A stretch of 64,000 nucleotides of DNA, from NCBI RefSeq assembly GCF_988243305.1, contig NZ_OZ547136.1; one strand, 5' to 3'. The translations under genes were made by a program, and so were the position numbers. The notes under the pieces were generated by a model. The model was given only the letters and a program-made list of their open reading frames with translations, ran no database searches and was not told the DNA's origin. This document shows, one piece after another, positions 36,001 to 40,713 of the stretch. Position 1 is the stretch's first letter. Each line of letters opens with the position of its first letter.

Positions 36001-37050
36001 ATGCTTAACACTGTAAAAATATCCAGTTGTGAGTTAATCAACGTCGACTGCCTGGAATTTATCCGGTCGTTACCCGAAAATTCTGTTGACTTGATAGTCA
36101 CGGACCCGCCGTACTTTAAAGTGAAGCCTGAGGGCTGGGATAACCAGTGGAAGGGCGACGATGATTACCTGAAGTGGCTGGACCAGTGTCTGGCGCAGTT
36201 CTGGCGGGTGCTGAAACCTGTCGGAAGTCTTTACCTGTTCTGTGGTCATCGCCTGGCATCTGATATCGAAATCATGATGCGTGAACGCTTCAGTGTGCTG
36301 AACCATATTATCTGGGCGAAGCCGTCCGGACGCTGGAACGGATGCAACAAGGAAAGCCTGCGGGCGTATTTCCCCGCCACAGAGCGCATTCTGTTCGCGG
36401 AACATTATCAGGGGCCGTATCGTCCGAAAGATGCCGGGTATGCGGCGAAGGGCAGTGCACTGAAACAGCATGTGATGGCCCCGCTGATTTCTTACTTTCG
36501 TGATGCGCGCGTGGCCCTGGGGATAACGGCAAAACAGATTGCAGATGCCACAGGAAAGAAAAACATGGTGTCGCACTGGTTCAGTGCCAGTCAGTGGCAG
36601 CTACCGAACGAAAGCGATTATCTGAAATTACAGTCGCTGTTTGCCCGGGTGGCAGAAGAGAAACATCAGCGCGGTGAACTGGAAAAGCCCCACCACCAGC
36701 TGGTGGATACGTATACGTCACTGAACCGGCAGTATGTGGAGCTGCAGAGTGAATATAAGCATCTGCGGCGGTATTTTGGTGTGACGGCGCAGGTGCCGTA
36801 CACGGATGTGTGGACACATAAACCGGTGCAGTTCTATCCCGGGAAACATCCGTGCGAAAAACCGGCAGAAATGCTGCAGCAGATAATCAGCGCAAGCAGT
36901 CGTCCGGGTGACCTGGTTGCAGATTTTTTTATGGGCTCAGGTTCAACGGTAAAAGCTGCACTGGCGCTCGGGCGTCGTGCGATTGGCGTTGAACTGGAGA
37001 CCGGACGTTTTGAGCAGACAGTCAGGGAAGTTCAGGATTTAATCGTTTGA
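36001..37050 (+). CDS. DNA N6-adenine (or N4-cytosine) methyltransferase, beta class
   Basis: 349-aa ORF; DPPY motif (IVTDPPYF) N-terminal, SAM-binding FFMGSGST C-terminal. Confidence 0.85.
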   Translation: MLNTVKISSCELINVDCLEFIRSLPENSVDLIVTDPPYFKVKPEGWDNQWKGDDDYLKWLDQCLAQFWRVLKPVGSLYLFCGHRLASDIEIMMRERFSVLNHIIWAKPSGRWNGCNKESLRAYFPATERILFAEHYQGPYRPKDAGYAAKGSALKQHVMAPLISYFRDARVALGITAKQIADATGKKNMVSHWFSASQWQLPNESDYLKLQSLFARVAEEKHQRGELEKPHHQLVDTYTSLNRQYVELQSEYKHLRRYFGVTAQVPYTDVWTHKPVQFYPGKHPCEKPAEMLQQIISASSRPGDLVADFFMGSGSTVKAALALGRRAIGVELETGRFEQTVREVQDLIV

Positions 37051-37099
37051 AACGGATGAGATTGCAGAATTAATTACGCACCATTATTATTCTGCTTCC

Positions 37100-37175
37100 G
37101 GCCCTTTAGCTCAGTGGTGAGAGCGAGCGACTCATAATCGCCAGGTCGCTGGTTCAAATCCAGCAAGGGCCATCA
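37100..37175 (+). tRNA. tRNA with CAU anticodon (Ile2/Met type, ileZ-like)
   Basis: cloverleaf: acceptor GGCCCTT/AAGGGCC, D-arm GCTCAGTGGTGAGAGC, anticodon loop CTCATAA, T-arm GGTTCAAATCC. Confidence 0.8.
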
Positions 37176-37275
37176 TCACAAACCGCCATTAGCTTATCAG
37201 GAAGAGCAGACGACACGATAACAGGGTTGTTGGTGCGGGGGCGGGTCCCCGATGGCGGTCCATTATCGGTATTCA

Positions 37276-37352
37276 GCGTTGTTAGCTCAGCCGGACAGAG
37301 CAATTGCCTTCTAAGCAATCGGTCACTGGTTCGAATCCAGTACAGCGCGCCA
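37276..37352 (+). tRNA. tRNA-Arg (UCU anticodon)
   Basis: acceptor GCGTTGT/ACAGCGC, anticodon stem ATTGC/GCAAT with loop CTTCTAA, T-arm GGTTCGAATCC, 3' CCA encoded. Confidence 0.85.
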
Positions 37353-37489
37353 TATTCATTCTTCCAGATTCCTTTCGGCAGAGCCTTATACTGAAATATA
37401 CCTGGCTCAGGATATTGTTGAAAATATTATATGTTTGTCAAAAATAAAAGTTCTGTTAAGTGTTGATTGAGTGTTTGTTATACGGTCTA

Positions 37490-37816
37490 ATGGTTTTTTC
37501 AGCATTAAATATTTATCATTCATATGGTGTGGGTAGAGTGAATATTGATGAGGCGTCGGGGTGTTTCATCCTTAGGCAGCGTATTGATATAGTCAATGCA
37601 GAACGAGCAAAGGCCTTCAGCCGTTTGACAGTTTTGTTCTGTACTCCTGATCGTCTTTCGGGAAGAGACGTTATTATTCTGAATAGTGATGCTATACAGA
37701 GGGTTTGCGATGAGTTCATGGTGGCTAATTCAGAATTATTTGCTCTTGTTCAGGAGTACAACAGAATAGCCAGGACCTGTGGTATGGATGAACTTCGGAT
37801 TACTCATCTGGGGTAG
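37490..37816 (+). CDS. hypothetical protein in AT-rich cargo locus
   Basis: 108 aa from ATG 37490; no clear Shine-Dalgarno. Confidence 0.3.
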   Translation: MVFSALNIYHSYGVGRVNIDEASGCFILRQRIDIVNAERAKAFSRLTVLFCTPDRLSGRDVIILNSDAIQRVCDEFMVANSELFALVQEYNRIARTCGMDELRITHLG

Positions 37817-38263
37817 ATACATATCTGGATTATCACCGGTTACGGTAAAAAGTGATTGCTTACTGTTTTTGTGAATGGCATTGCAGCAGCCGGATAATGT
37901 CAGTGCTGGCTGACGGTGTGCTGGTGGCGGGTGTGGTGGTTGCTGCTTTCCCGTTGCTGAAAAAGAAAACGCCAGACTGTTAGCCGGGTATCAGTTAGCG
38001 GGAGAAATTTTTAAATACTTCACAATTCAGGCGGTTGACTGTTGTCTGGTTTGCGGGGAGTTTGTTAAAAGAAACTGGCATGGTGAATCCCCCTGTGCGG
38101 AGGGGCAATCAGCGAGTAGGTATATGGGATAATCGCGGATTCAGGTGCTGGTACTGAATTCACCGGGAGGCACCCGGCACCATGCAATGGCACATAGCGC
38201 CACTCTCCAGCCCCTCTCCGGAGGGGCTGTTTATATTGATTTTGTCAGATGTGAGTAAACTCC

Positions 38264-38599
38264 TTATGGACTTTGTTGTTTTAGCCCATAAGGACATATT
38301 TGCAGAGTGCAACGGTTATTAAAGCATTCATTCAATACGTTATCTGTATTTGTAGGGCATTCCTGGCTGTTTTTGATTAAATTCCAGAATGTTTTATTGA
38401 ATGGTACTACGTTGTAAATGGTTACAGGCAGCACTTTGTTATTGAGCATGATGCCTGTGTGAGTCAGTGTAAATATACTTTCAGGAGGTAAGAAAGCATC
38501 CGATTGATACCAGATTATTAATTTTATTTTACTCCATATGACTGAAAAAGATATTCCGCATGATGGCTGGATAACTGTATCAATCACAATCCACTTCAT
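38264..38599 (-). CDS. hypothetical 111-aa protein, reverse-oriented cargo gene
   Basis: ATG at 38599 with AAGGAAA RBS at good spacing; hydrophobic N-terminal region, Cys-rich C-terminus. Confidence 0.45.
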
Positions 38600-38844
38600 T
38601 TAGTTTCCTTGTTTATGCCTTGCTGGTGATGTTCTGAAAAGTATAAATGATATTTTTGATTGTAAACCATAGAGCAGAATTATTTTTCTGATGTTGTTTA
38701 TTGTTTATTTAAATGCAGGGTGGTTTATATCTCGTCTTGTAGTTTATCCATGCATATCTGCTTGATGATGAGGTTTTTAATTAAGGTATGGTTTTGTGTT
38801 TTTTCTGTATTACATGTCAGGTATTTTAAAGAATCATTTTTCAG

Positions 38845-40713
38845 ATGGTGGAAAGAACCATGGCATTTAAACACTATGATGTTGTCAGGGCGGCGTCGCC
38901 GTCAGATCTTGCGGAAAAGCTGACACATAAACTGAAAGAGGGCTGGCAGCCGTTTGGTAGTCCGGTGGCCATAACCCCTTATACCCTGATGCAGGCGATT
39001 GCAGCAGAAGGTGATGTGGTCGTCAGTGGTGCAACTGAGCCGGAGTGGTACTACGTCATCGTACTGGCCGGGCAATCCAATGCCATGGCTTACGGTGAAG
39101 GGCTTCCGCTTCCGGATTCATACGATGCGCCCCATCCGCGCATTAAGCAACTGGCCCGTCGTAACACAGTGACTCCCGGTGGTGAAGTATGCGTATTTAA
39201 CGACATCATTCCTGCTGACCATTGTCTGCATGATGTTCAGGATATGAGTACGATTAACCATCCCCGGGCTGACCTGAGCAAAGGGCAGTACGGCTGTGTC
39301 GGACAGGGCTTACATATTGCCAAAAAACTGCTTCCGTATATCCCTAATAATGCGGGGATCCTGCTGGTACCATGCTGTCGTGGTGGTTCGGCATTCACCC
39401 AGGGCACGGAGGGGACATTCAGCGAGTCCACGGGGGCCAGTCAGGATTCGGCTCGCTGGGGAGTGGGTAAGCCGTTATATCAGGATCTGCTTTTCCGCAC
39501 GAAGGCAGCATTGCAGAAAAACCCGAAAAACGTTTTGCTGGCGATATGCTGGATGCAGGGGGAATTCGATATGACGAATGCCAGTTACGCCCAGCAGCCA
39601 GCAGCATTTCTTGCAATGGTACAGCAGTTCCGTGCTGATCTTGCCGGGCTGGCGGCGCAGTGTCACGGTGGAAGTCCGGCATCAGTCCCCTGGATTTGTG
39701 GCGACACGACATACGCGTGGAAACAAGAACACGGTACGCAATATGAAGTGGTATATGGTGCATATAAAGGTAAAGAATCCCAGCAGATTTATTTTGTTCC
39801 CTTTATGACCGATGGTAGCGGAGTTAATACACCGACAAACAACCCGTCAGAAGATCCTGATATTGCCGGGTCTGGTTATTACGGTTCGGCATCCCGAACG
39901 AACAAAAACTGGGTATCATCAAATCGCCCGACGCATTTCAGCTCATGGGCGCGTCGTGGCATTATTCCCGATCGTATGGCAACTGCTATTCTGAACGTAG
40001 CCGGTCGCACCTTAGCCTTCATTAGTGGTAAGGCACCGGAAATCAAACCCTCGCCCGGCGGCGACACGCCATCGGGGCCGTCTGAAGATGCATCCGTACG
40101 CACAATCTCCCTGTTGCCGACAGCCGGAGATGCTGCTGCGCAGGGCTGGAGCATTAAGAATGGCGGAATTCAGTTGTCAGATGGTGTATTTAAGATCACC
40201 AAGCAGAGCAATAAAGCCTGGTCCCTGACGCGCCCGGTGGATGACGCAGTCTCCCTGCTGACACGGGGTGGCAGACTGAGCTGTAAGTTTCGACTGTCAG
40301 GCGCACTGACCAACAACCAGTTCGGTCTGGGAATTTATCTGTATACCGATGTAGCGTTACCTGACGTCGTGGCGATGACCGGGACTGGTAACCCGTTCCT
40401 GATGTCGTTCTTCACCCAGACCACAGACGGCAAACTGAATCTGATGCATCACAAGAAAGCCGGAAACACAAAGTTGGGCGAGTTCGGGAATTACAGTAAC
40501 GACTGGCAGACGCTGGAGCTGGTGTTCACCGCCGGCAGTGCCACGGTTACTCCGAAACTGAATGGAGTGGCTGGCCCGGCATTCCAGGTCATAAAAGACA
40601 GTCTGACACTGGGGCTGAATGCGCTGACGCTGACGGATATTACCAAAAATGCAGCGTATGGCGTTGAGATAGAAAGTCTGGTGCTGGAGATAAATGCACC
40701 GGCATCATCATAA
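38845..40713 (+). CDS. NanS-p-like sialate O-acetylesterase (DUF1737 plus SGNH/SASA domain)
   Basis: N-terminal MAFKHYDVVRAASPSDLAEKL... and GQSNAMAYG esterase motif; start may be ATG 38860. Confidence 0.8.
   Translation: MVERTMAFKHYDVVRAASPSDLAEKLTHKLKEGWQPFGSPVAITPYTLMQAIAAEGDVVVSGATEPEWYYVIVLAGQSNAMAYGEGLPLPDSYDAPHPRIKQLARRNTVTPGGEVCVFNDIIPADHCLHDVQDMSTINHPRADLSKGQYGCVGQGLHIAKKLLPYIPNNAGILLVPCCRGGSAFTQGTEGTFSESTGASQDSARWGVGKPLYQDLLFRTKAALQKNPKNVLLAICWMQGEFDMTNASYAQQPAAFLAMVQQFRADLAGLAAQCHGGSPASVPWICGDTTYAWKQEHGTQYEVVYGAYKGKESQQIYFVPFMTDGSGVNTPTNNPSEDPDIAGSGYYGSASRTNKNWVSSNRPTHFSSWARRGIIPDRMATAILNVAGRTLAFISGKAPEIKPSPGGDTPSGPSEDASVRTISLLPTAGDAAAQGWSIKNGGIQLSDGVFKITKQSNKAWSLTRPVDDAVSLLTRGGRLSCKFRLSGALTNNQFGLGIYLYTDVALPDVVAMTGTGNPFLMSFFTQTTDGKLNLMHHKKAGNTKLGEFGNYSNDWQTLELVFTAGSATVTPKLNGVAGPAFQVIKDSLTLGLNALTLTDITKNAAYGVEIESLVLEINAPASS

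Follow-up and report, generated by a model that had tools for sequence, protein, structure and literature searches.

The stretch of DNA analyzed here (64,000 nt; hereafter the window) contains, at positions 37353 to 38844, a segment bordered on the left by a tRNA-Arg(UCU) gene (37276 to 37352, + strand, found by ARAGORN and Rfam), and on the right by the ATG at 38845 of a gene for a NanS-p-type SASA carbohydrate esterase with a DUF1737 N-terminus (38845 to 40713, + strand, 622 aa, assigned from the ORF and the RefSeq annotation of its homologue). Four elements can be distinguished within it: a small protein-coding gene (orf92), a remnant of tciB, and a gene for a small RNA of the STnc100 family, all on the + strand, and the gene iraL on the opposite strand. 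A sequence-only reading had described the segment as some 1.5 kb of AT-rich DNA at the position where Stx phages carry stx. This was borne out, as its GC content of 0.397 is the minimum among all 1492-bp windows (mean 0.509, sd 0.051), and it lies between phage tRNAs and a NanS-type esterase. The AT-richness is confined to two patches, one at 37353 to 37537 (GC 0.31) and one at 38264 to 38844, where iraL has a GC content of 0.35 and the region upstream of it 0.29. The center of the segment is GC-normal, with values of 0.55 for STnc100 and 0.52 for the ORF carrying DUF3927. The first patch (+ strand) is the leader of the cargo slot that we call slot A below, and includes a nonconserved ORF extension from the ATG at 37490. 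The second ends in a spacer at 38733 to 38844 (no strand assigned; GC about 0.29), which extends from the iraL regulatory region to the esterase start.

The surrounding genes follow the order of Stx phages (Q, methyltransferase, tRNAs, cargo, NanS-type esterase, lysis genes), as the sequence-only reading had proposed; the order was checked against, and matched by, Shigella phage 75/02 Stx and the Stx2c prophage of O157:H7. The reading was also right that stxA- and stxB-like ORFs are missing, since the ORF list contains none and tblastn and blastn gave no significant match in 37353 to 38048. Its count of only two intact tRNAs agrees with ours. Besides tRNA-Arg(UCU), a phage tRNA with a CAU anticodon is encoded at 37100 to 37172 (+ strand; ARAGORN, Rfam tRNA at 72.5 bits, and RefSeq annotation), the equivalent of which in related prophages is tRNA-Ile according to RefSeq. 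Between these two lies a decayed tRNA gene (approximately 37183 to 37262, + strand), which ARAGORN and Rfam did not detect, and which emerged from alignment with the copies of O104:H4, CFT073, phi296, and SS17. In relatives this middle tRNA is Arg-UCG; here, the halves of the acceptor stem remain, while its D arm and its anticodon arm have become scrambled. The segment itself is widespread: O104:H4 and numerous further genomes have all 1492 bp with 100% identity, CFT073 matches the whole length with 98.6% identity and without gaps, and 862 complete genomes match the 1492-bp query at a coverage of at least 80%. For 24 kb of the window, genome matches were mosaic, with a coverage of 91% at best, and indicate an E. 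coli-type lambdoid prophage.

The main gene of the segment is the 111-aa ORF on the minus strand (38264 to 38599), which the sequence-only reading had singled out without naming its kind. Its product is identical to IraL (c1429) of CFT073 at 111 of 111 residues, and the two genes share 99.4% nucleotide identity over 336/336 positions; RefSeq gives a single protein, WP_000871291.1, for both. The protein matches the NCBIfam model NF007393 (anti-adapter protein IraM) with 162 bits, where the cut-off is 121 (residues 1 to 110 on model positions 1 to 113 of 114), and its residues 1 to 78 align to the solved N-terminal domain of IraM (PDB 8TWD chain A, E 9.1e-32); a Pfam search gave no match. Three gene classes can be told apart in complete E. 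coli genomes: about 1400 records with at least 95% nucleotide identity, a class at 78%, and the K-12-type iraM at about 71%. The published operational definition of iraL asks for at least 95% nucleotide identity to the coding region of CFT073 along its entire length (PMC4045071), with a regulatory region at least 96% identical to that of CFT073 and carrying the mapped transcription start site (TSS); the copy in the window falls within both limits. Judged by its sequence, the ORF is iraL, a gene of CFT073 that was characterized in 2014 by Hryckowian and colleagues (PMC4045071), and with the main gene known since then and the RNA present in Rfam, the segment is largely already described. In CFT073, IraL bound the adaptor RssB in two-hybrid and pulldown experiments and raised the stability of RpoS; it acts in unstressed logarithmic phase, and its two-hybrid binding was limited to RssB's N-terminal domain (PMC4045071). 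In addition, later papers found more iraL mRNA or protein upon mutation of fur and upon a shift to 37 °C (PMC7157518, PMC12890032). By analogy with the identical protein in that other host, the protein encoded here would have the same function. For E. coli O104:H4, where the DNA is identical, RefSeq uses the name "anti-adapter protein IraM", a label that masks the functional difference between IraL and IraM.

The 5' untranslated region and promoter of iraL occupy 38600 to 38732 (− strand), as placed by a match to the published 5'RACE sequence, a reading of the minus strand, and alignment with CFT073. Since the 5'RACE sequence matches exactly at 38603 to 38632 (−), the TSS can be set at 38632. 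On the minus strand, the −35 hexamer TTTACA (38661 to 38666) is followed by 17 nt, the −10 hexamer TACTTT (38638 to 38643), 5 nt, and the +1 position. The leader is 33 nt long and contains the Shine-Dalgarno sequence AAGGA (38606 to 38610) six bases ahead of the ATG, the good ribosome-binding site that had been noted before. The region 38600 to 38732 corresponds to the fragment from −100 to +33 that complemented an iraL deletion (PMC4045071). It is identical to CFT073 at 130 of 133 positions (97.7%), with both hexamers intact and the three substitutions located beside the −35 hexamer, at −1, and at +31. A simple promoter scan did not flag this published promoter because its −10 hexamer fits only 3/6 positions, so that the promoter assignment rests on the 5'RACE sequence. 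Gene, promoter, and TSS sequence are thus all intact in the window, in an orientation antisense to the late operon. This bears on the proposal that the locus is maximally transcribed on induction, which could hold for slot A at best: it cannot cover iraL, because iraL runs antisense to the late operon, from a sigma-70 promoter of its own that is active in growing lysogens.

To the left of iraL, on the + strand, lies the gene for a prophage sRNA of the STnc100 family, related to PasD (38049 to 38238), which is supported by Rfam, a terminator scan, a consensus fold, and published qPCR primers. The match to the Rfam model RF02076 reaches 132.4 bits (gathering threshold 47) and covers model positions 1 to 206 of 206. 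Folding of 11 copies with RNAalifold yielded 37 base pairs, nine of which are kept through changes on both sides. In the consensus fold, a long-range closing helix (GCAUGGUG/CACCAUGC) encloses four hairpins, and is accompanied by an intrinsic (Rho-independent) terminator, found by the scan at 38208 to 38229 and followed by a T-run; the z-score of the single-sequence fold is −2.26. The two GC-rich hairpins of the sequence-only reading are present at 38090 to 38105 and at 38208 to 38229, but as parts of this predicted sRNA gene rather than as isolated terminators. The published STnc_100 qPCR primers, with which the RNA was detected in STEC vesicles (PMC12370729), match the window at 38079 and 38152. 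In a preprint of 2026, STnc100 is described as a relative of the PasD sRNAs, which associate with Hfq, and as located upstream of the sialate esterase, and the RIL-seq remarks in the literature concern STnc100/PasD at the level of the family. An element, TGTTAAAA, is conserved upstream of the core in the 11-copy alignment; as no conserved −35 element was found upstream of the core among these aligned copies, it is only a candidate for a promoter of STnc100 itself. RefSeq places a pseudo-CDS on the opposite strand at 38068 to 38193, entirely within the sRNA gene, which is probably spurious.

The left half of the segment contains the second ORF singled out by the sequence-only reading, a 108-aa forward ORF at 37490 to 37816. 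This ORF exists and is conserved, but its conserved start is the GTG at 37538. Its translation matches the profile phrog_2873 over the full length (E 1.7e-70, positions 1 to 108 of 108), as do distant members of the family (P0027, P0032, and P0033), and homologues with overall identities of 33% to 66% comprise two E. coli clades, which are about 60% identical to each other, and further proteins of 91 to 95 aa at 33% to 45%. Conservation starts only at residues 17 to 18 (V/M-NIDE), and the GTG at 37538 is conserved. In place of the extension upstream of it, the diverged clade has an IS element at one locus and, at another, a stop that closes the frame. A protein of 92 aa, encoded at 37538 to 37816 (+ strand), is therefore the probable product, and we named the gene orf92; its Shine-Dalgarno sequence is weak. 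Between the two clades, its 92 codons show no gaps or stops, with 25, 22, and 43 differences at the first, second, and third codon positions, respectively, and a dN/dS of 0.28. As a control, three of the other five frames gave values of about 0.9 to 1.2; the antisense frame that shares the third codon positions of orf92 gave 0.24, yet contains three stops. This pattern identifies orf92 as a real coding sequence under purifying selection.

AlphaFold2 predicts two long helices for orf92 (residues 3 to 34 and 50 to 81, pLDDT 88.5), which would form a helical hairpin, with a conserved TPDR-x-SG motif in the short turn between them. Searches of Pfam (with every member of the alignment included), NCBIfam, PADLOC, and the sequences in the PDB gave no match. 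Foldseek searches of the PDB and BFVD returned generic helical hairpins (prefoldin, EmrA, BAR domains) with a best E of about 0.1, which is uninformative. Three long repeat proteins that had come up in the representative search (P0026, P0034, and P0036) were judged on reading to be spurious low-complexity matches. One distant prophage shows the gene order ORF95 (a homologue of orf92), TerB-like TciA, DUF3927 TciB, and holin, and a diverged orf92 clade was found without any DUF3927 gene. The gene lacks a RefSeq annotation, and it sits in the exact toxin slot.

Downstream of orf92, a 43-aa ORF (37852 to 37983, + strand) matches the Pfam domain DUF3927 (PF13064; E 1.4e-26, residues 2 to 43 on model positions 7 to 53 of 53). 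When aligned with full-length TciB, it has the second hydrophobic segment only, the first being replaced by 11 unrelated residues, and its homology to the tciB of JLK-2012 starts at 37884. A tblastn search for tciA in the window found none. The ORF is a 5'-truncated remnant of a tciAB cassette, comprising the 3' two-thirds of the membrane-peptide gene tciB, and it may be inert. An internal ATG at 37897 yields a 28-aa peptide (MSVLADG...TPDC; 37897 to 37983) that forms the C-terminal part of the 43-aa ORF. The 28-aa peptide of the sequence-only reading is therefore real, but had been placed nine bases too far downstream, and is the tail of the truncated tciB. Literature searches for TciA, TciB, and DUF3927 found only unrelated papers on Trypanosoma; the PHROG labels "tellurite resistance" for TciA and "inhibition of cell division or resistance to colicin" for TciB are annotations only.

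Pairwise mapping against related phages arranged these elements as a tRNA block (36949 to 37365), slot A (37366 to 38007), an STnc100 block (38008 to 38231), slot B (38232 to 38858), and the esterase. Breakpoints in homology cluster at the edges of STnc100, with mosaic junctions at 37884, 38008 to 38020, 38186 to 38194, and 38228 to 38231. We further surveyed 139 STnc100 cores in the first 120 viral contigs in scan order, a nonrandom sample with many contigs from related isolates. The nearest feature upstream was a tRNA in 41 cases, TciB in 36, ORF92 in 16, stx1B in 11, and stx2B in 3, while downstream it was the esterase in 67, IraL in 31, AgvB in 5, and a third IraM-family variant in 3. Upstream and downstream features were freely mixed, and all 34 Ira genes in these contigs were antisense to STnc100. 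STnc100 thus splits the region into two independently assorting cargo slots. The sequence-only reading had assumed a single cargo locus that replaces stx; instead, there are two slots, and slot B coexists with stx in Stx2c and Stx2a phages.

In the Stx2c prophage of O157:H7, slot B holds a third IraM-family gene directly after stx2cB and STnc100. This variant (WP_001303568.1; phages 2851, 1717, Stx2c_*, and Stx2a_WGPS*) has 75% amino acid identity to IraL and shares both its slot, between STnc100 and the esterase, and its antisense orientation. It differs from iraL in having stx2 immediately upstream, and in the sequence just before its start codon, which is largely unlike that of iraL. We found the variant, mostly unannotated, in 41 sequenced phages, among them 2851, 1717, 17 records named "Stx2c-converting", and several Stx2a phages; the block of stx2B, STnc100, and ira was found with a query coverage of at least 80% in 232 complete genomes. 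Our literature search found no paper that discusses it. An IraM-family gene next to stx2 in Stx2c and Stx2a phages could link the carriage of toxin phages to the control of RpoS.

Several other explanations were weighed against these results. If the segment were the scar of a Stx phage that had lost stxAB and kept fragments of it, the exact Stx-phage synteny on both sides and the presence of the STnc100 block that follows stxB would be accounted for. However, neither tblastn with Stx1A/B and Stx2A/B nor a sensitive blastn comparison of slot A with the stx1 and stx2c regions found anything beyond some 30 bp in the 5' flank of STnc100. Moreover, slot A holds a conserved gene that is under purifying selection, the slot is empty in the stx-negative relatives Nil3 and phi296, and the sole scar seen is that of a tciA-tciB cassette. 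The comparison with stx-negative phages that the sequence-only reading had suggested, carried out by slot mapping together with these searches, hence points to distinct cargo and, at the level of the sequence, refutes a deletion of stx, which seems scarcely credible to us. We give even less credence, close to none, to the view that the AT-rich stretch is nonfunctional recombination debris with chance ORFs. Low GC, mosaic junctions, the truncation of tciB, the decay of one tRNA, and the pseudo-CDS that RefSeq places over the sRNA would all suit such debris, but iraL has been characterized experimentally, the distribution of differences over codon positions and the dN/dS of orf92 are those given above, and STnc100 scores far above the Rfam threshold. 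This reading is refuted for iraL, STnc100, and orf92; the tciB remnant may fit it.

The other two alternatives concern the function of the encoded proteins. Orf92 and the DUF3927 peptide might form a module of the anti-phage, superinfection-exclusion, or colicin/tellurite-resistance type, a view that can draw on the gene order in a distant prophage, the PHROG names for TciA and TciB, and the nature of the locus as a classic moron site. Against this, no PADLOC-DB family matched orf92, the DUF3927 peptide, or IraL at E ≤ 1, the window has no tciA and only a tciB without the first hydrophobic segment, the diverged orf92 clade does without a DUF3927 gene, and the PHROG names are mere annotations; we hold such a module to be improbable. 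The broader suggestion that the locus encodes a candidate moron, virulence, or defense factor fares accordingly: the main ORF appears to be a moron that alters host physiology, while PADLOC lent no support to a role in defense. Alternatively, the 111-aa protein could behave like IraM of K-12, being PhoP-dependent, responding to Mg2+ starvation, and binding both domains of RssB. NCBIfam and RefSeq do call it IraM, it is 62% identical to K-12 IraM, and most of the residues named as RssB contacts of IraM are kept or conservatively exchanged, with C14, F18, W30, I61, and Y62 identical in the two proteins and T13S, L75I, H63N, and I64V as substitutions. Yet it is identical to IraL, which acts in unstressed logarithmic phase and binds RssB's N-terminal domain only (PMC4045071), a side-by-side comparison by eye of its upstream region with that of K-12 iraM revealed no evident similarity, and its genomic context is unlike that of iraM. 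IraM-like behavior is therefore quite improbable in our estimation.

We consider it very likely that four small accessory elements make up the segment as a mosaic, and that it belongs to the late region of a prophage of the lambdoid, Stx-phage-like kind, where a conserved sRNA gene creates two cargo slots. Slot A, from tRNA-Arg to STnc100 and in the exact place of stxAB, carries orf92 and the tciB remnant. Because both lie on the late-operon strand, they would probably be made only upon Q-modified read-through from PR', as expected from standard lambdoid biology. By the same token, STnc100, a structured sRNA of about 190 nt ending in an intrinsic terminator, is possibly part of the Q-dependent transcript. 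Slot B, from STnc100 to the esterase, carries iraL on the opposite strand under its own sigma-70 promoter. IraL would be made in the growing lysogen and bind the N-terminal receiver domain of RssB, which would then no longer deliver RpoS to ClpXP, so that RpoS would be stable during logarithmic growth, as was shown for the identical protein in CFT073. Expression from its own promoter in the growing lysogen would make iraL a gene of lysogenic conversion rather than one expressed on induction, and late transcription after induction would presumably run antisense through it. What had looked like a candidate virulence or defense factor at the stx position thus resolves to the published iraL and a catalogued sRNA, in a 1.5-kb segment that CFT073, O104:H4, and hundreds of further genomes share with hardly any change. 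At the same time, iraL, previously placed only on the "potB island", can be assigned to the lambdoid late region as a moron, with a fixed slot in antisense orientation next to the slot for stx.

A more speculative extension of this two-slot model, which we regard as rather doubtful, is that STnc100 serves as a conserved junction, acting as terminator and homology block, that defines two exchanging slots, with the antisense slot B perhaps reserved for small regulators of global host networks in the lysogen (of RssB/RpoS in the case of IraL and the third Ira variant, of GcvB in that of AgvB). If this were true, many Stx2c and some Stx2a phages would bear an RpoS stabilizer directly beside their toxin genes, and convergent transcription of the late operon and STnc100 against ira would switch the stabilizer off at prophage induction. 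As a separate part of this extension, orf92 would be a new late-expressed effector in the toxin slot.

Among known systems, the stxAB locus of Stx phages shares with the window the insertion slot between the tRNA block and STnc100; the window lacks both stx and tciA. Shigella phage 75/02 carries stx1AB in slot A, with STnc100 beginning 79 bp past stx1B, and in Stx phages generally STnc100 sits downstream of stxB. The stx-negative relatives Nil3 and phi296 have an empty slot A (about 23 bp in Nil3), and that of JLK-2012 holds tciA-tciB, where the window instead shows a fusion of orf92 with the 3' part of tciB. With other STnc100/PasD prophage sRNAs, the copy in the window shares the match to the full-length model and the place upstream of a sialate esterase; copies differ in their 5' flank and in the linker ahead of the terminator. 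Slot B contains iraL in the window, in CFT073, and in phage 640R1. The CFT073 locus has the same protein, TSS sequence, promoter hexamers, and neighbors, but only a DUF1737 remnant in place of the full-length NanS-type esterase.

IraM of K-12 (YcgW/ElbA; solved with RssB in PDB 8TWD) belongs with IraL to the family NF007393, at an amino acid identity of about 59% to 62% (62% as computed here, 58.9% in PMC4045071). The two share the N-terminal beta-barrel domain, aligned over residues 1 to 78, and four invariant C-terminal cysteines. Unlike iraL, however, K-12 iraM lies at another locus, beside e14, with a different upstream region, and IraM is reported to be controlled by Mg2+ starvation and to bind both domains of RssB. 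An adjoining STnc100 was considered for K-12 iraM as well and rejected, as there is none at that locus. A positional parallel is AgvB (Rfam RF02702), an anti-sRNA of EHEC prophages that acts on GcvB as an RNA sponge (Tree et al. 2014, PMC4104026). An Rfam scan of the window gave no match to AgvB, which occupies the antisense slot just past STnc100 in the Stx1 phage 75/02 and in five viral contigs. AgvB and iraL are both small regulators of a global host network, one as an RNA and the other as a protein, with unrelated sequences.

Some phages carry tandem cassettes with 2 to 4 copies of the gene for the prophage sRNA STnc100, in which every copy closes a different cargo (TolA-like, an AraC-type regulator, or ORF92). 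Two copies were found in each of the compared loci L003 (4561-4754 and 5030-5218) and L008 (2344-2556 and 5650-5839), and four STnc100 cores in L061. These multi-copy arrangements agree with the view that STnc100 marks the border between cassettes or serves as a recombination block. The STnc100 of phage mEp460_ev081 (L002 5697-5887) has lost its terminator hairpin, and its match to the window stops at 38186, which marks a recombination breakpoint within the sRNA. In DNA identical to the window, RefSeq has a pseudogene for a partial "hypothetical protein" at 38068-38193 (-). This annotation runs antisense to the STnc100 core, within which it falls entirely, and is probably an erroneous CDS call.

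The small protein gene orf92 (PHROG 2873, 37538-37816), located between tRNA-Arg and STnc100, showed clear coding constraint, while its equivalents in O104:H4 and CFT073 carry no annotation in the RefSeq records. Directly upstream of the L008 homolog, an IS3-family element has inserted (3762-4990), giving the called protein, P0017, a chimeric N-terminus, which helps to place the true start of the orf92 family.

Other RNAs were also detected in the prophage. Sok antitoxin RNA (32396-32571, +), which in relatives has hokD alongside, and the sRNA DicF (24586-24637, -) both scored above the Rfam gathering score. At 37183-37262 lies a decayed middle phage tRNA, the counterpart of which is Arg-UCG in O104:H4, CFT073, phi296, and SS17. 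It keeps both halves of the acceptor stem, has scrambled D and anticodon arms, and was missed by both ARAGORN and Rfam.

When the RssB anti-adaptor IraL (38264-38599) is aligned with K-12 IraM and the variant from Stx2 phages, 4 cysteines of the C-terminal tail (C81, C92, C97, and C102) are invariant. In the structural paper on IraM, the tail is described as flexible and less conserved, and it was cut off before crystallization. A metal-binding or redox role of these residues is conceivable.

A third IraM-family gene, encoding 107 aa, was observed in the Stx2c prophage of O157:H7 SS17 (L015 4501-4824), between STnc100 and the esterase gene and antisense to stx2. Its product shares 75% identity with IraL and falls in the 62% class relative to K-12 IraM. 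The gene is present in 41 sequenced Stx2c/Stx2a phages (2851, 1717, Stx2c_*, Stx2a_WGPS*), most of whose records leave it unannotated, and a literature search found no paper on it. The stx2B-STnc100-ira block occurs in 232 complete E. coli genomes at a query coverage of at least 80%.

In Stx1 phages, the anti-sRNA AgvB directly follows STnc100, in the same antisense slot as iraL (L004 4166-4225, -); 5 of the 120 viral contigs surveyed carry it there. With AgvB in some phages and ira genes in others, the cargo of this slot is thus a regulator, either an RNA or a protein, that acts on a global host network.
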